Shown: positions 8,903 to 48,922, numbered from the stretch's first letter. The stretch: DNA of 64,000 bases from an uncultured Lactobacillales bacterium (GCA_964643615.1 CAZXTR010000001.1:1923-65922), one strand, 5' to 3'. Notes: generated by a model from the sequence alone, not told the origin. Translations and numbers: made by a program.

Positions 8903-8979
8903 GTTCGTGTAGCTCAGCAGGATAGAGCGCAGGATTCCTAATCCTGAGGTCGTGGGTTCGACTCCCGCCACGAACACCA
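8903..8979 (+). tRNA. tRNA-Arg (anticodon CCT)
   Basis: Hand-folded cloverleaf. Acceptor GTTCGTG/CACGAAC is fully paired, D-stem GCTC/GAGC, anticodon stem CAGGA/TCCTG, loop TTCCTAA, T-arm GTGGG-TTCGACT-CCCGC, discriminator A, encoded CCA. Confidence 0.9.
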
Positions 8980-37308: not shown

Positions 37309-37385
37309 GGTCTCGTAGCTCAGCTGGATAGAGCAACAGCCTTCTAAGCTGTGGGTCGGGCGTTCGAATCGCCCCGAGATCACCA
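37309..37385 (+). tRNA. tRNA-Arg (anticodon TCT)
   Basis: Hand-folded. Acceptor GGTCTCG/CGAGATC with one G-U pair, D-arm GCTC-AGCTGGATA-GAGC, anticodon stem ACAGC/GCTGT with loop CTTCTAA, T-arm GGGCG-TTCGAAT-CGCCC, encoded CCA. Confidence 0.9.
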
Positions 37386-37389
37386 ATAT

Positions 37390-37429
37390 AAAAACTGCCT
37401 TTTTAGTAAAAAGGCAGTTTTTGTTTTTT
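37390..37429 (+). terminator. Rho-independent terminator after the tRNA
   Basis: Perfect inverted repeat AAAAACTGCCTTTTT / AAAAAGGCAGTTTTT with a 3-nt loop, then TTGTTTTTT. Confidence 0.8.
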
Positions 37430-37486
37430 CCTATTTCAAAACAGTTTTACTACTTGCAAATTCAATAAGGACAGTCTAACTTAATA

Positions 37487-37975
37487 ATGAAAAAAGGGGT
37501 TTATATGCAAAAAGGTATTTTAACATTAGATTATAACAAAGAACAATGGCAAGGCATGATTTTATTGTCTCTTATTTTATCCGCACTCTCGGGGCTATTA
37601 GCTTGGATGTGGGGCACTTTTTTGAGTGTGTTGTTTTTTGTGATCGTCATATTATTTTGCGCCGAGAAAATTAATTTCTTTTATTCGCGCATTGCCAAAG
37701 GCATCCCCTATATTAAAATTACTGCAAAAGAAATACAAATTGACGGCGAACCCACATTTAAAAAGGCAGACGTAATTCGTGTTCAAAAATTGGGTTTTAG
37801 GATGATTGGTTTCCAATTAAAACCTATGAAGAACAAAATTTTTTCGCGACGTAGTCGTATAGATCAAATATTTTTTCATCGTCAATGTCCGTGCTTTGTG
37901 GCCGTTCAAATGTTAAACGAAAAAAGCAAAAAAGCCTTTGGTGATTTTTTAAAAAAAGAATATAAATTCAAATAA
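37487..37975 (+). CDS. Hypothetical small membrane protein
   Basis: 162 aa with two adjacent TM helices near the N-terminus and a basic C-terminal half. No family recognised. Confidence 0.45.
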   Translation: MKKGVYMQKGILTLDYNKEQWQGMILLSLILSALSGLLAWMWGTFLSVLFFVIVILFCAEKINFFYSRIAKGIPYIKITAKEIQIDGEPTFKKADVIRVQKLGFRMIGFQLKPMKNKIFSRRSRIDQIFFHRQCPCFVAVQMLNEKSKKAFGDFLKKEYKFK

Positions 37976-38468
37976 CAATCGCCTTTTTATTGCATTATCT
38001 TTTAATGCATCTTTCAACCCTTAATACGCTTTGCCATTTTTTAAAATAGGGTCATTCAAAGTTGTGGCTTTATCTTTGAATCCCCTTATATGTGTCCTAT
38101 CACAAAAGCCACCACACTATCTTCCGCATCCGCACAAAACGACAAACTTTTTATCGGGCATAGAACATCTTACCTTTTTTATAACATTAAAAATCCCCCC
38201 TTATCTATTTCGTATAATGATTTCTTTTTAAATAAGAGAATCTCCAAAAACTAAATAAGGATCATCTTTGCTCACTTGAATGCAAGTGTCTTATTGTTTT
38301 GCCTCGCTCACCTTCCTTTTTTATAAAAACAGGAGATGCATAATGATTTTCAATCCATGGTTGTTATTTCTTTCATTGTTTTATGCAAAATAAATGAAAA
38401 GCCTTGAAAAAAATATTAAAAAGCGTATAAAGAAAGTAGTTTTTTCAATATAAGGAGTTGGTCCTGTT

Positions 38469-40202
38469 ATGCGTATGAGTTTTCTTGTTGGCCGCCGACA
38501 CAAAGAAAAGCCGGCTGAAGCGTCTTTAATTAGTCATATTTATTTGCTTCGCGGAGGATATATTCGCCCCGTCGCGAATGGGATTTATTCTTTGCTTCCG
38601 CCTACCGTTCGTATTCAAGAGAAAATAGAATCGATTATTCGCACTGAAATGAATGCTATCGAAGGACAAGAGGTCAAAATGCCGGTCGTTCTTCCACGAG
38701 AATTATGGGACGAAACAAAACGTTATGACACAGTAGGTTCTGAATTACTTCGCCTTGAAGACAGAACTCATCATGGCATGTTGTTGGCGATGACACATGA
38801 AGAAGCCGCTGTCCATTTGGCGCGCACTGAAACTTCAAGTTATAAAGATTTTCCTTTCGTATTATACCAAATTCAAACAAAATTCAGAGATGAAGCGCGG
38901 TCTAGAGGCGGATTAATTCGTGTGCGTGAATTTACGATGAAAGATGCTTACTCTTTCCACACATTCCAGGCAGATTTAGACGCGTATTATGACCAATGCG
39001 CCGAAGCATATCACCGCATTTTCGCGCGCTGCGGAATTCCTGAAGTTCTCTCTATCCAATCAGACAACGGTATGATGGGTGGGAAGGAAGCTCACGAATA
39101 CATGTTTGTAACAAGCGCAGGCGAAGACAAAATCGTCAGTTGTGATCATTGCCGTTATACTGCAAATCAAGAAGTAGCTTCTTCGTTAGTGGCGTCTGAA
39201 CCCACGGGGGAAGCCTTGCCTTTACAGCGCGTTGAAACACCGAAAATTTCGTCAATTCCTGACTTAGTTCAGTTTTTTAATTTGCCTCCATTTTGTTTCG
39301 CAAAATCTGTGTTTTACAAAACATCTTCGGGTAAGCTAATTTGTTGTATTATTCGTGGCGATATTGATATTAACGAAATCAAATTGTCTAAAATATTAAA
39401 AGAAACTTTTGAGTTTGCATCCGATATAGAAATTCAATTAACAGGAGCTGTCCCCGGTTTTGCTGGAGCGGTGGGATTGGAAAATTGTTCTGTGCTTGTT
39501 GATAAATCGGCGGCAACTGCAACTAACCTTATTTGTGGTGCGAATAAAAAAGACGAACATTTCAAAAACTTCAATGTGTTTCGTGATATACCTTCTGCAA
39601 AAATTGTGGATATTGCCACGGTTAAAGAAGGTGATACTTGCCCCCATTGTGGCAAAGGGCACATCACAATGAAACGAGGAATCGAAGTCGGAAATATATT
39701 TAAGTTAGGTACATTTTACACAGAACGCATGCACATGACTTACACCAATGAAGAAGGTAATGAAAAAAATCCTATCATGGGTTGCTATGGCATTGGAATT
39801 GGTCGTTTAATCGGCTGTATTATTGAAGCAAGACATGACGATTTTGGACCTATTTGGCCGATGAGCGTCAGCCCATGGCAAGTCCACTTGAATGTTTTAC
39901 AAGCAGATAAGGCAAACGCACTTCAAATTGCCAATAACACATATCAAGAAATGGAAAGAAATGGTATTGAAGTTTTGTTTGATGATCGCAATCTTTCCGC
40001 AGGGACACAGTTTGCCGAAGCCGATTTAATGGGAATTCCCTTGCGTTTGATTTTAAGCCCGAGGAACCTTGGAAAAGGGATGGTCGAATATAAAGTCCGC
40101 GGATCACAAGAACAAGGATTTATTCCTATTGTTGAAATAGTTTCTTTTTGTAAAAAATTTATTCAACAAGAAATGGAAAAATTGAACACACCTCTGTTAT
40201 AA
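38469..40202 (+). CDS. proS: Prolyl-tRNA synthetase, bacterial type with full INS editing domain
   Basis: 577 aa; N-terminus MRMSFLVGRRHKEKPAEASLISH parallels E. coli ProRS. Class II motifs and an inserted roughly 180-aa INS domain between motifs 2 and 3. RBS AAGGAG. Confidence 0.9.
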   Translation: MRMSFLVGRRHKEKPAEASLISHIYLLRGGYIRPVANGIYSLLPPTVRIQEKIESIIRTEMNAIEGQEVKMPVVLPRELWDETKRYDTVGSELLRLEDRTHHGMLLAMTHEEAAVHLARTETSSYKDFPFVLYQIQTKFRDEARSRGGLIRVREFTMKDAYSFHTFQADLDAYYDQCAEAYHRIFARCGIPEVLSIQSDNGMMGGKEAHEYMFVTSAGEDKIVSCDHCRYTANQEVASSLVASEPTGEALPLQRVETPKISSIPDLVQFFNLPPFCFAKSVFYKTSSGKLICCIIRGDIDINEIKLSKILKETFEFASDIEIQLTGAVPGFAGAVGLENCSVLVDKSAATATNLICGANKKDEHFKNFNVFRDIPSAKIVDIATVKEGDTCPHCGKGHITMKRGIEVGNIFKLGTFYTERMHMTYTNEEGNEKNPIMGCYGIGIGRLIGCIIEARHDDFGPIWPMSVSPWQVHLNVLQADKANALQIANNTYQEMERNGIEVLFDDRNLSAGTQFAEADLMGIPLRLILSPRNLGKGMVEYKVRGSQEQGFIPIVEIVSFCKKFIQQEMEKLNTPLL

Positions 40203-40240
40203 ATCTTACATTAAAAATTCATGAGATTTTAAACGTTTGG

Positions 40241-41914
40241 TTACCGCGTCAAAGGTTTGTATTTAATACGATGAGGCCTATCTGAATCCGCACCTAAACG
40301 ACGACGTTTGTCTGCTTCATATTCGGCATAATTACCTTCGAACCAAACAACTTGGCTGTCCCCTTCGAAAGCTAAAATGTGTGTTGCAAGTCGGTCTAAA
40401 AACCAACGATCGTGGGAAGTAATAACGGCGCACCCTGCAAAATCCATTAATGCTTCTTCCAGCGCCCGCAAAGTATCTACATCCAAATCATTTGTAGGTT
40501 CGTCCAACAATAAAACATTCGCACCACATTTTAACATTTTGGCTAAATGCACACGGTTACGTTCCCCCCCAGATAATTGCCCAACTTTTTTTTGTTGATC
40601 CGCACCTTTGAAATTAAATTGTGCAACATAGGAACGCGAGGCGATATCTCTTTTGCCTAACGTAATTATATCCTTACCGTCTGATATTTCTTGCCATACT
40701 GTTAAGTTGGGGTTCAACGCATCTCGGCTTTGATCGACATAGCCTAACTTAACCGTTTCTCCCAACCGAAAATTCCCATCATCAGGTTTTTCTTGCCCTG
40801 TAATAATACGTAACAAAGTCGTTTTCCCCGCTCCATTTGGACCAACAACACCAACTATACCGCCTGCTGGTAAATTAAAAGATAAATCATCAAATAATAA
40901 TTTATCCATAAAGGCTTTTTTCAAATGTTCGGCTTGAATAACAACGTCACCTAATCTTTCCGCTACAGGGATTATAATTTTTGCTGCCGTCACCACACTG
41001 TTTCCAGCCTTTTTCAACAATTCATCATAAGCCACAATACGAGCTTTAGATTTAGCCTGTCTTGCTTTAGGGGATTGACGTATCCATTCTAATTCTTCTT
41101 TAATCGTGCGTTGACGTGCATTTTCTTCACGCTCTTCTTGAGCTAATCTCTTTTCCTTTTGCTCTAACCAAGATGAATAATTGCCTTCATAGGGAATACC
41201 TTCACCTCTATCCAATTCCAAAATCCAGCTCGTGACATTATCCAAAAAGTAACGGTCGTGCGTCACCATAACAACCGTTCCAACGTAATCTTTTAAAAAT
41301 TGTTGCAACCAAGACACACTTTCGGCATCCAAATGATTCGTCGGCTCATCAAGCAACAATAATTCAGGTTTAGAAAGTAATAACCGACATAAAGCAACGC
41401 GCCTTTTTTCTCCTCCTGATAATTCATCCACATTCCAATCTCCTGGAGGGCATCGTAAAGCATCCATTGCAATTTCAACAGTTCTGTCCAATTCCCAACC
41501 ATTACAAGCATCTATTTTTTCTTGAAGTTCAGCCTGCTTCATTAACAATGCATCCATATCAACATCAGGGTTTGCAAATTGCATATTAATGTCTTCAAAT
41601 TGCTTTAATAAATTCCGGACATGACCAACACCGTCCATTACATTTTCTAAAACGTTTTTGGTTTTATCTAATTGAGGTTCTTGTGCTAAATAGCCTACAC
41701 TCACACCATCTGCTGCCCAAGCTTCCCCACGATAATCGTTGTCTAATCCCGCCATAATCTTTAACAAAGTTGACTTTCCCGCGCCATTCACACCCAAAAC
41801 ACCAATTTTTGCCCCTGGTAAAAAAGAAAGCCAAATATGTTTTAAAACCTCTTTCCCTCCAGGCCAAGTTTTGCATAAATCTTTCATTACGTATGAATAT
41901 TGGTAACTAGGCAT
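40241..41914 (-). CDS. ettA: ABC-F translational throttle ATPase EttA (YjjK)
   Basis: 557 aa with two ABC domains ([24 protein letters not shown]) and a linker of EttA length. The C-terminal KYKPL resembles the EttA C-terminal motif. Confidence 0.85.
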
Positions 41915-41915
41915 A

Positions 41916-42701
41916 TTAAAAGCTCCCTTTCCCTGTCATTTTTACCTTTAAAATATCAAACACTTGTTCAGGCGAGAAAAATTGTGGTGCCTTTTTAGTT
42001 AACCCCTCTCGTGTTAAGCGTATTGATTTTTGATATTCTTTTATCATAAACTCATAATATTTATTTTGATTTTCATGATCTTGAACAACCTCTACTGCAA
42101 GGCGTGTTATTTCATCTTTCCCTAACACGTCTAAAAAGAAAGGAGCATAACCTTCTTTAATAAGAAGTAAATTCATCATTAAATTCGCAGTGCGCTTATT
42201 CATATCAGGAAAAGGTTGTGTCAATACAATCCCCTTATAAGTAGAAAAAACTCGTTTTAAAAAGGGTTGTTTTTCGTCAAATTGATTATTAACAATTAGC
42301 CTCATTTGATGCGGGATTTGGCTCGCTTCAACAGGTAAATAGTCCCTTATTTTTTCGCCAGACTTTCTATATTCACCACTTACCGAAATACTTCTTTGTG
42401 AAACCAAAAGTCTTTCTACAATCGTCCCTTTCATCAAAAGTGCATTAATTTCTCGAATGGTACATTCGGCCACAAAATCGTTTGAAGCAATATTATCACG
42501 AATGTAGGCAACGCCATTTTTTAAATTGCGACTAGTAATTGTAATTTCATGTCGCAATTCTTCGCTTAAATCATTATTTTTTATATTCTCTTGACACGAT
42601 TGTTGAAAAAAATCATCCAACAAAACAAAAACAGCCGCTTTTCCTTGTTCGGTCAACGAACTTTTAAATAATTCGCATTCTTTCTGTAACTTAGAAAACA
42701 T
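41916..42701 (-). CDS. Fic/Doc-fold protein with a non-canonical Fic motif ([12 protein letters not shown] in place of HPFx[DE]GNGRxxR)
   Basis: 261 aa. The block [30 protein letters not shown] aligns without gaps to the Fic core [27 protein letters not shown]. The flanking helices are conserved, but the catalytic His and both Gly residues are replaced. Its stop lies 1 nt from the ettA start and its start 3 nt from the dut stop. Confidence 0.6.
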
Positions 42702-42704
42702 ACT

Positions 42705-43157
42705 TTACACTCCCGAACTGCCAAAACCTGTCGTCCCCCGGACAGTTGTTGACAACTCTTGCGTTTCAATAAGTTTAGGACGTATAATAGGACAAACAAC
42801 CATTTGGCAAACTCTATCGCCAGGATTAATTATAAAATCTTTATCCCCTGAATTCAACAAAATCGTACGAATTTCTCCACGATAACCCCAATCAATCGTA
42901 CCCGGAGTGTTTACAACCATAATACCATAATTAAACGCCAAACCCGAACGCGGGCGAATTTGAATTTCAAAAGAATCGCAATCCCCAATCAATTCACATT
43001 GAATACCATTAGGGACTAACACCCTTTGACCTGCCGGAATAACGACTTGTTCACAAATCGCAGCACGTAAATCAATACCAGAATCATTAGGTTTTGCATA
43101 TTCTAACGTGCCCCATTTTTTGTTGTAATGAGATAGATATTTAATTTTTAATTGCAT
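42705..43157 (-). CDS. dut: dUTP diphosphatase
   Basis: Dut motifs SGIDLRA, RSGLA, GTIDWGYRGEI. Start taken at the Met with RBS AGAGG. The ORF-track start is 18 nt further upstream. Confidence 0.9.
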   Translation of the reverse strand: MQLKIKYLSHYNKKWGTLEYAKPNDSGIDLRAAICEQVVIPAGQRVLVPNGIQCELIGDCDSFEIQIRPRSGLAFNYGIMVVNTPGTIDWGYRGEIRTILLNSGDKDFIINPGDRVCQMVVCPIIRPKLIETQELSTTVRGTTGFGSSGV

Positions 43158-43418
43158 GCTAACCTCTGTTATCATTTTATAGCTGGAACATTGTACCTAA
43201 AAAAAAAGAAAAAGCAACTTCTTCTTTCAATGTTTACATAAAGAGTTTTGATGATAGCCTTGTAATCACTTTACGATAAATTCATCGCACTTAATTATTA
43301 CGATGACAATTATGTTTTCAGAAAACTCTACTTTTTCATATTGATTTTTTTATCTTCACATATAAAAACATTTTCTTTCTTTTTTGACTTTTAAACAAAA
43401 CCTACGTATATTTCAATC

Positions 43419-45272
43419 ATGATTGATTTAAACGATGTTACTTTACGAATTGCCGGAAAAACGTTATTAGAAAATGCAAACGCACATTTGCCTAGCCGTA
43501 AAAAAGTTGGCTTCGTCGGATTTAACGGATGCGGGAAGTCAACACTTTTCAAAGCAATTCAAGATGAAATTTCTTTAGAATGCGGAACTATTTCTAAACC
43601 AAAAAATGACAAATTGGTTTTTATGACTCAAGAAATAAAGGATACTACCGTCCTTTTATTGCCTTTCATTTTATCGCAAGATAAGGAAAGAACTGAACTT
43701 TTAAAAAAACTGGAAACAGCTTCAAATATAGAACTACCTGGGATCTATGAACGTTTGTACGCCATTGGGGCCAGCAGTGCCGAAGCAAGGGCTTGTCATA
43801 TATTAAAAGGGTTGGGATTTATTGAAAAAGAGTTCAATCGACCATTAAGTGAATTTTCTGGTGGATGGCAAATGCGTGTTGTTTTGGGAGCAACATTATT
43901 CCAACCTTCGGATATTTTATTATTGGATGAACCTACTAATCATTTAGATTTAGAAAGTGCACTTTGGTTAATGAGCTTTTTACAAAAATACAAAGGGACT
44001 TTGTTGTTGATTTCTCATGACCGCTCTTTTTTAAACCAACTGTGCAATATAATTGTCCATTTCGAAAGCAAAAAATTATTTACTTATAGTGGCAATTACG
44101 ATTGCTATATTCGCACACGATCCGAACAAAAAAACTTACAACAAAAGATGCTTGAAAAACAAAAAGCTAAGCAGGCGCATTTAAAATCTTTCATCGACCG
44201 TTTCAGATACAAAGCAACAAAAGCAAAGCAAGCTCAAAGCCGGATCAAGCAATTGGAAAAAATATCTTTGGACCTTGTCGAATATGAAACTGCGTTTACG
44301 CATTTTGAATTCCCAGAACCATCCGATTTGAGTTCGCCTATTGTTCACATGGATACCGTATCAACAGGTTATGACGATAAAATCGTTTTAAAAAATTTGA
44401 ACTTGAAAATCGATAAAGACGATAAAATTGCATTACTTGGCGCGAACGGAAACGGGAAATCCACTTTGGCAAAATTAATCAATGGATTATTACCAGTCAA
44501 AGAAGGGAAAATGAGCATTGCTCCGAAATTAAGAATCGGTTATTTTGCACAACACCAAACCGAGGTTTTGCCATTCGGGGAAACACCTGTTTCTTACATT
44601 GCTTCTTTAATGCCCTTAACAAACGAAACAAAAATCAGAACGCATTTGGCTCGTTTTGGACTTGGCGATCAAAAGGCATTAACCGTCATCAGCCAACTTT
44701 CTGGCGGAGAAAAAGCACGCTTGCTTTTTGCGGGGATTACATGTAACAACCCTCAATTATTGATTTTAGACGAACCTAGCAACCATTTAGATATTGAATC
44801 TCGAGAGGGGTTAATGGAGGCTTTAAATATTTACAAAGGTGCTGTATTATTAGTGACGCACGATTTACATTTGATTGAAACCGTGGCCGATAGATTGTGG
44901 GTTGTTAATCATCAAACATGCGTGCCTTTTGATGAGGATATTTCTGCATATCAAAAAAATATCTCGGACGAAAATAGAACTCCTTCGACTTTAAAAGTCG
45001 TTAACAAAAATTCTTCCACTCCGAAGGAAAAACGTCGACAACAAACTTTAAAATTTCAAACCTTAAAACCAATAAAAGATAAAATTGAAAAGCTGGAAAC
45101 AGAAATGGAATATAATCAAACAAGACAAAAAGAAATTGAAAAAGCTTTCCTAAATACGCCAACACCAAAGCAAATAGTCGAATTGCAAAAAGAATTGTCT
45201 TTGTTAAAAAAACGTCAATCTGAAAAAGAAAATCAATGGATACTTTTAAACGAAAAATTGGAAATAGAATAA
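43419..45272 (+). CDS. ABC-F family ATPase (two ABC domains, no TM domain)
   Basis: 617 aa with tandem Walker A motifs (GFNGCGKST, GANGNGKST), ABC signature LSGGWQMR / LSGGEKAR, and a coiled-coil C-terminal extension. Confidence 0.8.
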   Translation: MIDLNDVTLRIAGKTLLENANAHLPSRKKVGFVGFNGCGKSTLFKAIQDEISLECGTISKPKNDKLVFMTQEIKDTTVLLLPFILSQDKERTELLKKLETASNIELPGIYERLYAIGASSAEARACHILKGLGFIEKEFNRPLSEFSGGWQMRVVLGATLFQPSDILLLDEPTNHLDLESALWLMSFLQKYKGTLLLISHDRSFLNQLCNIIVHFESKKLFTYSGNYDCYIRTRSEQKNLQQKMLEKQKAKQAHLKSFIDRFRYKATKAKQAQSRIKQLEKISLDLVEYETAFTHFEFPEPSDLSSPIVHMDTVSTGYDDKIVLKNLNLKIDKDDKIALLGANGNGKSTLAKLINGLLPVKEGKMSIAPKLRIGYFAQHQTEVLPFGETPVSYIASLMPLTNETKIRTHLARFGLGDQKALTVISQLSGGEKARLLFAGITCNNPQLLILDEPSNHLDIESREGLMEALNIYKGAVLLVTHDLHLIETVADRLWVVNHQTCVPFDEDISAYQKNISDENRTPSTLKVVNKNSSTPKEKRRQQTLKFQTLKPIKDKIEKLETEMEYNQTRQKEIEKAFLNTPTPKQIVELQKELSLLKKRQSEKENQWILLNEKLEIE

Positions 45273-45371
45273 TAAAATTTTGTACCCATACGCTTTATTT
45301 TTCACCACTACAACAAGCAAAACTTAAAGCGTTATCGTTTTTCTTATTGTAGATTCTTTTGAATAAAAATT

Positions 45372-46061
45372 TTATGGTAATTTTCTTTTCATTTGATGGT
45401 GTTGAACCAAAGCAATTATAAACAAAAGGGGTAACATCACTTCTAGTCCCTCTTCAATCCAGGCGAAAAAAAAGAACACTTCCGGAGAAAGGTGGTTGCC
45501 CGTTTTCTTTACAAAATGAGAAGGGAACCTATCCGCGAATTTACACACCACTAACGCCCCAAAAAAACACCATAATGTCCACGCAATCGGATTTAATTTG
45601 AAAAAGTTTTTCCAAATCCACGGCACGTACTTTATCAACAAATAGACAATTATCGACAAAACAACCAATAACAAAACAAGGGTAAAAATCTTTTCTTCCA
45701 ATGGGTTTTCTGGGTTCGTAAAAAATCGAATCTTAATGGCGGTTGTATCTTTTGACGGAATCCAATGTTGGATGCCCGCCTCTCGCAAAAGCGCACAAAG
45801 CCATAAAAAGAAGAACATCACATAATTACGTCGTAAAGTGGGGGTATCAAAATCACGATACAATACCAACATAACAAGCAATGCAAAGCCGTAACTTATA
45901 TATGTTAAAAAGTCGCAAAATTGCCAATCTTCAAAAAAATGAGTATATCCTTTTACAAAAGAAAAAAATGCAATACCTCCCAAGCATAGCATAAAAAATA
46001 CCATAACAATTGGGGAGAAGAAAGAGCTTAAAATATATTTTTTCATTTTCCCAGATTTCAT
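45372..46061 (-). CDS. Hypothetical polytopic membrane protein
   Basis: 229 aa with about 6 hydrophobic helices. No family recognised. Confidence 0.5.
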   Translation of the reverse strand: MKSGKMKKYILSSFFSPIVMVFFMLCLGGIAFFSFVKGYTHFFEDWQFCDFLTYISYGFALLVMLVLYRDFDTPTLRRNYVMFFFLWLCALLREAGIQHWIPSKDTTAIKIRFFTNPENPLEEKIFTLVLLLVVLSIIVYLLIKYVPWIWKNFFKLNPIAWTLWCFFGALVVCKFADRFPSHFVKKTGNHLSPEVFFFFAWIEEGLEVMLPLLFIIALVQHHQMKRKLP

Positions 46062-46150
46062 AACTCGTTATATTATGTAGCATTTTTTTGCTATCTTGCC
46101 AAGGGAAAAAGAAACTTATTAAAGATTCTTTTTCCCTTAAACCCAATTAA

Positions 46151-47410
46151 CTAAAAAGAATATTGATATTGAATACCAATTAAACTAGATTGCAAATGTT
46201 TGTATTTAACTTTTGTCGCCGTTGAATCACTTGTTTCCAAAGCTGTTGCTGTCCTTCCAAACATGTGCGCATATGCAAAATCCAATTGCCAATTATCTTG
46301 CATGTAGGAAAATCCTGCGCTGATCCACCAACGATCATTATCTGGAATGCGAACTGTCCGCGATATATTGTTGTGAGCAGGACTTTCATCCCAACCCGTA
46401 CCACAACGCAACGTCCAATTTTCGTTTTTATAATAATCCAACCCTGCTGTCAACGTCCAGGTGTTATCATAATTATAATTTGACCGTTTCCCCGATTTTA
46501 AAGTAGGCACTGCTTGAAAAAGACGACTTTCAGAACTCATTACAAATTCCGGGAAAGATTGGCTCCAATGCGTCCATCTAGCCGTTCCAGAAAAGCCATA
46601 CCTATCATATTTTTGGTACGCTGATAAAGTGACTGTTTCTGGTAAAGCTGGCGATGCACGACCTGTCGCTGTTTGATTAAAGAGGTCAACCAAAGAAGGA
46701 TTCGACGTTAAAACCGAACCATCATTCCCTTTGATTTCATGATCTCCCTTGACTTGTTGTGTCGAACGAAGCCGATAAGATAATCCTATCCTTGTATCTT
46801 TGGCTGGTCTATAAATAACGCCAAACGCCGCCGTTTTTGTCCAACCATCTAACTCAAAATCGCTATATCCGCCCCCCAAAGCGGACAACAAAGTGTTTGT
46901 CATATGCCCGTAAATGTAACGTGCGATTAAGCTTACACCTATAGACCATTGATCATTGACTTGATATGAAATAGCCGGAGCAATATCAATAATATCCAAT
47001 TTTGATAAAATAGCCGTGTCGTGGCCAAACCAATCTGCATTATATTGCGTTTTCAAACCAAACGGCGCATAAACGCCAAGACCGACTGTCCAATTATTAT
47101 TTAATTTATATTGCGCAAAAATATTAGGAATCGGCGCCCAAAAATTCATTTTTTCTTCATTGTTATTACCAATCTCATGGACCTCTGCCCTAATATTTAC
47201 CATTGTCAGTCCTAATTGTGCACCAGATCCTTTTAATCCCATTCCGGCAGGGTTGAATACAATTGCTGAAAAATCATCTCCGACAACACCTGCGCCTGCA
47301 TAAGCACGACCAAGTCCCGTCACAGAGTAATCATTTAATTGATAACTCCCAGCTATCGCGGGCAAAGAACAGCATGTTGCTAAAAGCACAACCAAACATT
47401 TTTTAATCAT
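46151..47410 (-). CDS. FadL/TodX-family outer-membrane hydrophobic-compound transporter
   Basis: Signal peptide MIKKCLVVLLATCCSLPAIA, N-terminal hatch motif and an amphipathic beta-strand pattern. The C-terminal Phe (QYQYSF) is typical of OM beta-barrels. Start set at ATG 47408-47410 with RBS AAGGAG. Confidence 0.7.
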   Translation of the reverse strand: MIKKCLVVLLATCCSLPAIAGSYQLNDYSVTGLGRAYAGAGVVGDDFSAIVFNPAGMGLKGSGAQLGLTMVNIRAEVHEIGNNNEEKMNFWAPIPNIFAQYKLNNNWTVGLGVYAPFGLKTQYNADWFGHDTAILSKLDIIDIAPAISYQVNDQWSIGVSLIARYIYGHMTNTLLSALGGGYSDFELDGWTKTAAFGVIYRPAKDTRIGLSYRLRSTQQVKGDHEIKGNDGSVLTSNPSLVDLFNQTATGRASPALPETVTLSAYQKYDRYGFSGTARWTHWSQSFPEFVMSSESRLFQAVPTLKSGKRSNYNYDNTWTLTAGLDYYKNENWTLRCGTGWDESPAHNNISRTVRIPDNDRWWISAGFSYMQDNWQLDFAYAHMFGRTATALETSDSTATKVKYKHLQSSLIGIQYQYSF

Positions 47411-48043
47411 ATAAAACTCCTTTTTAAAAAATAACACCTCATTTTATGTAATCGAAAAAAGATTGCAACCATTTTGTCACAAAAGCGTCATACAAAATGA
47501 CAATTCCTTCAATATGAACACTTAACAAAATAGATAAAAGTCCTAGCTTCTATATTAAATCTTTTTTTATAGAGGATATATAGCGGGAAAACAATCTTTG
47601 AGCATCGTCTTCTTTATTAAATTAAAAGTATCGAATTTTGAATAGCTGTAGATACTAGATAACCTCATCAATCAATAGATGTTGTTTATTTACCTCAAGA
47701 TGGCTCACAAGCTTTATTTTTTGCAAAAAGAAATGCCGTCTATTGGATAAATGCTTTTCAAAAACAATACATTTTTGTCCAGGGTTTTCATCCTTTAACC
47801 AAAGGGCTTTGAATAATTTTTCAGCACAAATATACGAAACCGATTTTAACAAATTCAGATAAAAAGGCTTTAGCCCTAAAAAAGTAATTATATTGTTGCG
47901 TTATAAAATCCTCAATAAGATTTTCGCTCGCACTTTATGTAGGTGCATCTGTTAAGATAATTTTTATTTTTTAACTAAATATTCATAAAATTCACACTAT
48001 CCTTAGCGGAGGCAGTAGCTTTTCAAATAAGAAAGGATGAGAA

Positions 48044-48922
48044 ATGACTGGCAATGATGTAAAACCATTTGGGATGCCTGAAGAAAATAAAAATGAACAG
48101 ACGGCATCTCCTGAAGTAGAAAAATCTGAAGAAAAAAAGGGTTTCAAAAAAGAGCTGAATAAAAAAATTTTTAGTCAGTTAAGAAAAAAATGGGCCGTTT
48201 GGGTTGCTGCAGTTGGGGTCGCTGTGGGTGGTATAGCTCTTTTGAATAAAGATAAGGGAGATGAAAATACAAACACCCCAAAAGAATCTATGACGGGGAA
48301 AAGTTTTGAAATGAACGGAGCTGAAGGCAATTTAGATGCACTTGTGGGCAATACAACCACAAACTCAACAACCATCATACCAGAAGTTGTTCAACCGGAA
48401 ACAATGGCAACCAATGCCACAACCATCACACCAGAGGTCATTCACCCAGAAACCATTACAAACAACGTAATAACTGTTATGCCAGATATTGCTCAATCGA
48501 TGGAGAATGTAGCGCCGGAAGTGAATGCCAATATGCCCGACTTTGATCAAAGAGATCTTAAGGACCAGCAGATTGAACGTCCATCACCTCGAGAGCGTTA
48601 TTTATCACAGAGAATTGAAGGTCCGTCGCTTCGAGAGCGTTATTTGTCACAGCGAATTGAACGTCCATCACCTCGAGAGCGTTATTCATCGCTTAAAGAT
48701 CTACGGATTGAGCAGGCTAATAATCCTCAAGTAAATGGGATACTAGTCCCTATACAGGAAGAAACAAAAGAAAAATATAACGAAAGATTAGAACGACACA
48801 ATACATTTTTAAATGGAGCAAATAGAAATCCTGTCCGATCCTATTTTGAATTGACACCGCAAGAACAAACGGATTTTAACACTACCCTTCGTCAATTAGT
48901 TCAATCACCTAGAACAAGGTAA
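48044..48922 (+). CDS. Hypothetical secreted/membrane-anchored protein with two blocks of in-frame tandem repeats
   Basis: N-terminal charged region then a TM/signal (AVWVAAVGVAVGGIALL). Roughly 17-aa repeats (TTI[IT]PEV[VI][QH]PET...) and three 14-aa repeats (IERPSPRERYLSQR). Confidence 0.55.
   Translation: MTGNDVKPFGMPEENKNEQTASPEVEKSEEKKGFKKELNKKIFSQLRKKWAVWVAAVGVAVGGIALLNKDKGDENTNTPKESMTGKSFEMNGAEGNLDALVGNTTTNSTTIIPEVVQPETMATNATTITPEVIHPETITNNVITVMPDIAQSMENVAPEVNANMPDFDQRDLKDQQIERPSPRERYLSQRIEGPSLRERYLSQRIERPSPRERYSSLKDLRIEQANNPQVNGILVPIQEETKEKYNERLERHNTFLNGANRNPVRSYFELTPQEQTDFNTTLRQLVQSPRTR
48572..48697 (+). repeat. Three 42-bp in-frame tandem repeats inside the preceding CDS
   Basis: The repeat ATTGAACGTCCATCACCTCGAGAGCGTTATTTATCACAGAGA occurs three times with a few substitutions, encoding IERPSPRERYLSQR, IEGPSLRERYLSQR and IERPSPRERYSSLK. 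Confidence 0.8.

Follow-up and report, generated by a model that had tools for sequence, protein, structure and literature searches.

Introduction

Fic enzymes are a model of how a single fold can support AMP, UMP, phosphocholine, phosphate and rhamnose modifications. In class II Fic proteins the inhibitory Glu pairs with the second Arg of the catalytic motif, and in Doc the Lys of the N-K-R triad goes with an inverted ATP and phosphoryl transfer. Here we describe a divergent fic-like gene located between dut (dUTP diphosphatase) and ettA (an ABC-F translational throttle) in a 64,000-nucleotide stretch of DNA from an uncultured Lactobacillales bacterium (GCA_964643615.1, CAZXTR010000001.1:1923-65922), called the window from here on. 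An initial annotation, made from the sequence alone, had described the gene product as a Fic-fold protein with a substituted motif, embedded in a dut-fic-ettA operon, and had considered both motif and placement atypical.

The mechanism of the canonical enzymes has been summarized before (PMC4454073). The His of the motif deprotonates the target hydroxyl, the Asp or Glu binds Mg, the motif loop and the first Arg hold the alpha- and beta-phosphates, and the second Arg holds the gamma-phosphate. There is also a prior in silico description of proteins with Gln in the place of this His. (Khater & Mohanty, 2015, Sci Rep 5:10804; PMC4454073) reported a class Qx[F|Y]x[D|E][G|V]NKR, consisting of 45 single-domain bacterial sequences that formed clade D2 of Doc, and argued from its retention that the class is possibly not catalytically dead. 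Doc of phage P1, with the motif HxFx(D/N)(A/G)NKR, is an EF-Tu kinase using inverted ATP (Castro-Roa et al., 2013, as cited in PMC4454073). Fic2 of Campylobacter fetus, with G-N-T-R and no last Arg, is still toxic and perturbs ribosome assembly or translation (PMC5651007).

A class II Fic fold with a substituted motif

The Fic fold was borne out by sequence profiles and by structure comparison. The Pfam Fic family (PF02661) matched residues 81-180 of the protein with 36 bits against a cut-off of 24 (E 1.3e-8). It also matched 29 of the 30 members of alignment A1, which comprises Gln-type proteins (that is, with Gln for the catalytic His) of about 235-300 amino acids with a mean identity of 25%. 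Among the PDB sequences, phmmer matched Caenorhabditis elegans Fic-1 (7e-6) and human FICD, and HMMER aligned the motif of the window protein column for column with the motifs of both, that of FICD being HPFIDGNGRTSR. An AlphaFold2 model built from 24 sequences (mean predicted local distance difference test, pLDDT, 82; predicted template modelling score, pTM, 0.83) has an all-helical Fido core with a helix-loop-helix (residues 147-161 and 168-182) and a beta-hairpin flap, a short hairpin at about 118-121 with residues 118 and 121 as strand. The first 23 matches found with this model by Foldseek were all FICD chains (E 2.5e-7 to 5e-6, TM-scores of 0.61-0.68).

The protein resembles Doc, that of phage P1 included, in its N168-K169-R170 triad, in place of N-G-R, and in the loss of the Arg at the last motif position (N173). 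Membership of the Doc family was nevertheless rejected. TIGR01550 (Doc) reached 15.8 bits against a cut-off of 38.65 (E 0.012). A profile of the Gln-type family matched FICD at 2e-30 over profile positions 30-231 and found no Doc chain at E<0.01, and when 23 family members were compared by hhalign with 16 canonical class II Fic proteins, the probability was 99.95% (E 3e-38, 225 columns). Besides a profile match above cut-off, the protein lacks the catalytic His of Doc, its single domain of about 125 amino acids and its upstream Phd-type antitoxin. Judged by profiles and predicted fold, it is a class II (FICD/BtFic/SoFic-like) Fic-fold protein, a divergent member, and not a Doc. Compared with the AMP-transferases of this class (FICD/HYPE, C. 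elegans Fic-1, BtFic 3CUC and SoFic) it is without the catalytic His, the anion-hole Gly pair and the second Arg, without the strict (S/T)xxxE(G/N) motif (with Lys41, tentatively, at the place of the inhibitory Glu), and without a tetratricopeptide repeat (TPR) or winged helix-turn-helix (wHTH) accessory domain.

Both HMMER and hhalign placed Gln162 opposite the His of HPFx(D/E)GNGRxxR, and HMMER placed Met167 and Lys169 opposite the two Gly and Asn173 opposite the last Arg. The initial annotation had recognized the replacement of the His and of both Gly; the loss of the last Arg had escaped it, and its reading of the following helix as LLMNLLL... was a small misreading, the actual sequence being different. 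Of the residues needed for AMPylation, the His general base, the Gly-Asn-Gly anion hole (here Met167-Asn168-Lys169) and the second Arg are absent, and the metal-binding Asp166, Asn168 and the first Arg, Arg170, are retained.

As for autoinhibition, no strict (S/T)xxxE(G/N) match is found anywhere in the protein, in agreement with the earlier remark that no inhibitory helix was obvious. In canonical class II relatives this motif lies 126-131 residues upstream of the catalytic one. With hhalign against the 16 canonical proteins, N-I-K-N-N-D-L-S (39-46) came opposite A-i-E-G-N-t-L-T, with Q37-E-N-I-K41-N42 in the inhibitory columns, and the model agrees with this placement (helix end at residue 42, loop at 43-46). 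Two MAFFT alignments conflict with it, having E18 or L27 instead of Lys41 in the column of the inhibitory Glu, for which the family consensus shows a semi-conserved Glu (hhalign). Under the hhalign placement, the canonical Glu-Arg salt bridge would, tentatively, have both of its partners replaced (K41 and N173).

The Gln-type family is conserved and widespread

A word-indexed protein search gave no match besides the query. A HMMER scan over 1.84 billion cluster representatives at E<=1e-3 retrieved just 78 proteins, the query included. The next best match stood at 9.5e-13, so that, with so few matches, the window protein is a distant outlier. Among the 77 others, 39 carried the pattern Qx[FY]x[DEN]xNKR and 32 the canonical His motif. 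In A1, residues Q162, F164, N168, K169, R170, L180 and P187 are invariant and R112, D166 and N177 nearly so; in a second alignment, A2, R112 does not vary at all.

When one genome per species was scanned with the back-translated DNA pattern QPFxDxNKR(x6)N, at least 120 loci were found, the window's own genome not being among those listed. The 80 titled loci include Bacteroidota, several classes of Proteobacteria, Patescibacteria, Verrucomicrobiota, Chlamydiota, Actinomycetota and others. Among the 120 loci listed, 73 code for proteins of about 460 amino acids with YLQPFxDVNKR and 38 for proteins of about 345 with Y[IL]QPFxDGNKR; the type nearest to the window protein, of about 240 amino acids, is found at two (L028 and L064, from gut or rumen metagenome-assembled genomes, MAGs), and seven are of other kinds. 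A strict (S/T)xxxE(G/N), typically S-x-x-x-E-G-N-T-Y-S-L-L-E-T, is present upstream in 97 of the 120 loci listed, all families together, which speaks for an activity still in need of inhibition in the Gln-type class at large.

The motif is therefore no one-off, and in that sense the initial annotation's view of it as atypical is not supported: Q-P-F-x-D-x-N-K-R is invariant in a diverse family, occurs in genomes of at least 120 species and belongs to a class reported in 2015. By these comparisons it is a conserved, widespread class already known in silico, and not a private degeneration. The window protein shares with that class the Gln for His, the Phe/Tyr, the Asp/Glu and the N-K-R (Q162, F164, D166, N168-K169-R170). 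It differs in the residue before N-K-R, Gly or Val in the published consensus and Met167 here. The same position is so varied among the 39 Gln-type homologues (nine Phe, nine Tyr, seven Gly, four Ala, four Val and others) that the published consensus does not cover the range seen in this family. At the position of N173, Arg is found in 96% of 23 aligned family members and in 31 of the 39 Gln-type homologues. The nearest relative, P0005 (42% identity over 96 residues), is likewise without this second Arg: QPFLDRNKRSSL.

The two large families of Gln-type proteins (L007-L126) deserve mention in their own right. One, of about 460 amino acids, carries YLQPFxDVNKRVSRLAAN; the other, of about 345, has a wHTH plus SYIQPFxDGNKRTARI. 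No NCBIfam model covers the Gln-type families, whose members annotation pipelines would simply name 'Fic family protein'. Two unusual architectures were also seen among the homologues. P0006 (441 amino acids) has two tandem canonical Fic domains after a hydrophobic N-terminus, one of them with the motif HPFQDGNGRTSR, and P0048 (1700 amino acids) has two distinct non-canonical motifs in one chain, QPFENGNTRTAS and HAFNDGNHRTAD.

An intact gene under purifying selection

The DNA of fic was 100% identical, and in the same context, in six Logan assemblies from six different sequencing runs. Contigs L001-L006, from six SRA runs, were 99.96-100% identical to window positions 37338-48601 over 1.5-11 kb, indicating that the same strain was sampled repeatedly, either as a common host-associated organism or from a shared source. 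A strain about 2% diverged (L140) retains fic, its motif and both tight junctions. The two versions of the gene differ by 8 synonymous and 3 non-synonymous changes (A23D, R50Q and Q246L, none in the core), for a pN/pS of 0.09 (binomial P 2e-4 against the neutral expectation); the flanking fragments of dut and ettA differ by 12 synonymous changes and no non-synonymous one. Going by this pattern of substitution, fic is a real, functional gene under purifying selection.

Possible activity of the protein

On residue evidence, canonical AMPylation is very unlikely, because the His base, the Gly-Asn-Gly anion hole and the second Arg are all missing. With Asp166, Asn168, Lys169, Arg170 and the flap Arg112 kept, the protein has most likely retained the ability to bind a Mg-phosphate or nucleotide ligand and to dock a protein target. 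Two modes of action may be considered. The protein could transfer a group by a chemistry that dispenses with the His base, the leading candidate, suggested by the N-K-R triad and the loss of the last Arg, being a Doc-like phosphoryl transfer from inverted ATP. Alternatively, it could act by binding alone. The link to dut and ettA is, in this reading, an accident of where fic landed.

We give somewhat better than even odds to this reading as a whole: a functional, divergent Gln-type class II Fic that retains its pocket, works through non-His chemistry or binding, and stands here by chance. Its broader part, a functional Gln-type class II-like Fic inserted at this place by chance, we consider highly probable. 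Some transferase or hydrolase activity of the protein is a tentative proposal, appreciably short of an even chance; a role as a binder without catalysis, whether or not the pocket holds a ligand, comes close to an even one when the ligand-free scaffold discussed below is included. C. fetus Fic2 resembles the window protein in its replaced anion-hole Gly and missing last Arg. Being active despite its degenerate motif, it gives a precedent that loss of the motif need not mean loss of function. In contrast to the window protein, which has neither the His nor such a partner, Fic2 keeps its His and is neutralised by the neighbouring Fic1.

Several points weigh against the reading that we favour. 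The persistence of the pocket is deduced from conserved residues and not from the geometry of the model. Only 22 of the 35 positions with at least 70% conservation in the family are kept; the losses include the family-invariant His of alpha3 (N86), His/Tyr155, the second Arg (N173), Tyr198 and the semi-conserved Glu. Such degeneracy within its own family also fits a binding-only or decaying role. The published Gln-type class was placed in a sub-clade of Doc, whereas profile and fold comparisons put the window protein and its family with class II/FICD; since Gln may have replaced His on more than one occasion, conclusions drawn from other Gln-type families may not hold here. In the literature searched, no experiments on Gln-type Fic proteins came to light, and any chemistry proposed for them here is putative. 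Finally, the selection test counts 11 substitutions only.

The strongest competitor is a catalytically dead scaffold, a pseudoenzyme whose Fic fold would serve for structure or protein binding while the old active site stays free of ligand. In its favour, the general base and three more of the nine canonical motif residues have been exchanged, further losses set the protein apart from its own family (N86, Y155 and N173), and an inhibitory motif is neither needed nor present. Against this, six loop residues (Q, F, D, N, K and R) vary hardly or not at all in a family of 25% mean identity, something unexpected for a pocket without a role, and most members of the larger Gln-type families, among the matches listed, keep the autoinhibitory Glu motif. 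We regard this scaffold as unlikely, but still as a serious contender. More of a long shot is the proposal that the invariant Gln/Asp/Asn/Lys/Arg pocket of Gln-type class II Fic proteins carries out an undescribed Fido chemistry without a His base, such as transfer to a non-hydroxyl or low-pKa nucleophile or hydrolysis as an 'eraser', and that the coupling to ettA would wire the window protein into translation control.

A recent insertion between dut and ettA

The EttA proteins most similar to that of the window (86-88% identity) came from MAGs, and named matches at 80-85% were labelled 'Alphaproteobacteria bacterium', so that, going by EttA names, the organism belongs to a low-GC alphaproteobacterial lineage of MAGs. 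In four relatives (L129-L132, EttA 86-87% identical) dut is followed by ettA in the same orientation, with a spacer of 62-104 nucleotides and no fic. In two others (L127 and L128, EttA 88% identical) the slot is occupied by a reverse-strand gene of 232 amino acids with faint MORN (MORN_2) matches (L127 4197-4895, L128 196-894). A more distant relative (L133, EttA 84%) has ettA elsewhere, near dnaA and hsp20, and not beside dut. The gene proS is convergent with ettA in L127 and in the window. In L129-L131, where it is on the opposite strand, it is displaced downstream by one or two genes; the stretch examined of L132 does not include it. A conserved TTTGC(A/T)-N17-TATAAT block, which passes the threshold of the promoter scan in L131 only, is found in the relatives between dut and ettA, as is an AAGGAG at the same distance from ettA as the GGGAG of the window, where the whole spacer is replaced by fic. 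Given the gene in L127 and L128, the dut-ettA spacer seems to take up accessory genes repeatedly in this lineage.

Six loci with homologues of fic were examined as well, and in all of them the gene is solitary. It is found after accC (P0019), the suf operon (P0053, P0082) and a DUF2147 gene (P0005), and near open reading frames (ORFs) resembling ribosomal protein L25 (L028) and ogt/MGMT (L064), both judged by eye and the former from its N-terminal sequence. At none of the six is there a dut, an ABC-F gene or a conserved small partner beside fic. A conserved dut-fic-ettA operon was rejected on account of the synteny in the relatives and of these contexts. As far as gene order can tell, the comparison shows a recent, lineage-specific insertion of fic into an ancestrally adjacent dut-ettA pair, and not an old functional partnership.

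The signature of a mobile element was searched for and rejected. No repeats bracket fic, only short imperfect ones being found, there is no integrase, and the composition of the gene is close to that of its neighbours (GC of 0.33 against 0.37 for the window; GC at third codon positions of 0.26 against 0.28-0.33).

The three genes share one direction. The stop codon of dut (TAA, 42705-42707) is followed by 3 nucleotides (AGT) and the ATG of fic (42699-42701), and the stop of fic (41916-41918) by 1 nucleotide and the ATG of ettA (41912-41914), so that the spacers given by the initial annotation are correct. No terminator-like site was found by a consensus scan of the coding strand between the genes. 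Promoter-like sites within the cluster, including an internal one for ettA, were not above the expectation from shuffled sequence. Spacers, Shine-Dalgarno-like sites inside the upstream genes and lack of a terminator make co-transcription and translational coupling plausible, and as the insert takes up the entire spacer, joint transcription and translational coupling of fic with dut and with ettA are now probable. The co-expression claimed at the outset may in this sense stand as plausible, though it is deduced rather than established. The C-terminal tail of the protein (residues 254-261, with pLDDT<50 in the model) overlaps the Shine-Dalgarno-like site of ettA.

The same 3- and 1-nucleotide spacers, the Shine-Dalgarno-like sites inside upstream genes, the lack of a terminator and the conservation of the arrangement in L140 could also suggest a functional module, as the initial annotation's emphasis on placement implied, in which EttA, the ribosome or dUTPase would be modified or regulated by Fic, in proportions fixed by the tight coupling. 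There are precedents for Fic and Doc proteins acting on translation, with Doc and SoFic on EF-Tu and C. fetus Fic2 and Fic3 on ribosome function (PMC5651007; bioRxiv 10.64898/2026.07.09.737422). However, the closest relatives have dut and ettA without fic, another has an unrelated gene in the slot, the more distant L133 lacks even the adjacency, and neither dut nor an ABC-F gene accompanies fic at any of the six homologue loci. Such a module is very improbable. Less probable still is a toxin of a toxin-antitoxin or anti-phage defence system (of FicTA, Doc/Phd or SoFic type). It would be in line with weak PADLOC matches to the SoFic and PDC-S04 models (E 1e-7 to 1e-8), with the Doc-like N-K-R triad and with the weak TIGR01550 match. 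Yet the PADLOC matches are of a generic Fic level, no antitoxin gene is adjacent, the neighbours of fic being dut and ettA, and no conserved small antitoxin partner appears at the homologue loci, for which reasons a system of this kind was rejected.

An assembly or sequencing artefact, or a decaying pseudogene of a canonical Fic, has practically no chance: nothing beyond the non-canonical motif speaks for it, and it is refuted by the six identical runs, the intact ORF and motif in L140, the low pN/pS and the occurrence of the variant motif in dozens of distant homologues. Neither did relatives carry a gene with a canonical motif universally at this position, which the initial annotation had named as a sign of sequencing error; they have no fic there.

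Features of the locus and its surroundings

The positions of the features described are collected in Table 1.

Table 1. Features of the dut-fic-ettA region, in window coordinates
Feature	Position	Strand	Basis or remark
fic-like ORF, 261 aa, ATG start, class II-like Gln-type Fic fold	41916..42701	minus	
Core motif Q162-P-F-P-D166-M-N168-K169-R170-T-A-N173 (residues 162-173)	42183..42218	minus	Loop between model helices 147-161, 168-182
Residues 37-46, counterpart of class II inhibitory motif, Lys41 in inhibitory-Glu column (tentative)	42564..42593	minus	hhalign
Residues 108-121, G-x-Y-R and beta-hairpin 'flap' region, R112 conserved	42339..42380	minus	Alignments A1/A2, model
dut (dUTP diphosphatase), 150 aa	42705..43157	minus	NCBIfam NF001862, 153 bits
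ettA (energy-dependent translational throttle, ABC-F), 557 aa	40241..41914	minus	TIGR03719 964 bits; NF008775 957 bits
GGGAG Shine-Dalgarno-like site of fic, within last dut codons, 8 nt 5' of ATG	42710..42714	minus	Sequence reading
GGGAG Shine-Dalgarno-like site of ettA, within last fic codons (tail ...KGSF*), 8 nt 5' of ATG	41923..41927	minus	Sequence reading

The start of dut is most likely the ATG at 43157 (150 amino acids) rather than the ATG at 43175 given by the ORF lister (156 amino acids). An AGAGG is found 5 nucleotides 5' of the former, and the 150-amino acid version was called in all the assemblies and in the relatives. Divergent from dut, a second ABC-F ATPase of 617 amino acids is encoded at 43419-45272 on the plus strand, so that two ABC-F paralogues bracket dut and fic. 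Its best NCBIfam match, PRK10636, reached 517 bits, under the cut-off of 917. In relatives L127-L132 two unannotated genes (154 and about 250 amino acids) are found upstream of dut in the place of this second ABC-F. The window contains no second Fic paralogue. Two tRNA-Arg genes were detected by the tRNA scan of the window on the plus strand (8903-8979 and 37309-37385, with CCT and TCT anticodons), and no other RNA genes were found there with Rfam at gathering thresholds and the tRNA scan.

Significance

Taken as a whole, the initial annotation was right about the Fic fold and the non-AMPylating motif, and probably about co-expression, and it overstated how atypical the locus is. By itself, this locus adds little beyond one more divergent member; the interest lies in the Gln-type class, a large conserved branch with Gln for the catalytic His that has so far been noted in silico only. 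An easily expressed member could tell enzymes with a new chemistry from binders, and the two large families seem a better entry for probing Gln-type chemistry than the protein of the window. The locus should not be taken as evidence of a Fic-EttA or Fic-dUTPase pathway. What it does provide is a clear example of a gene inserted exactly in the conserved dut-ettA spacer and probably translationally coupled on both sides.
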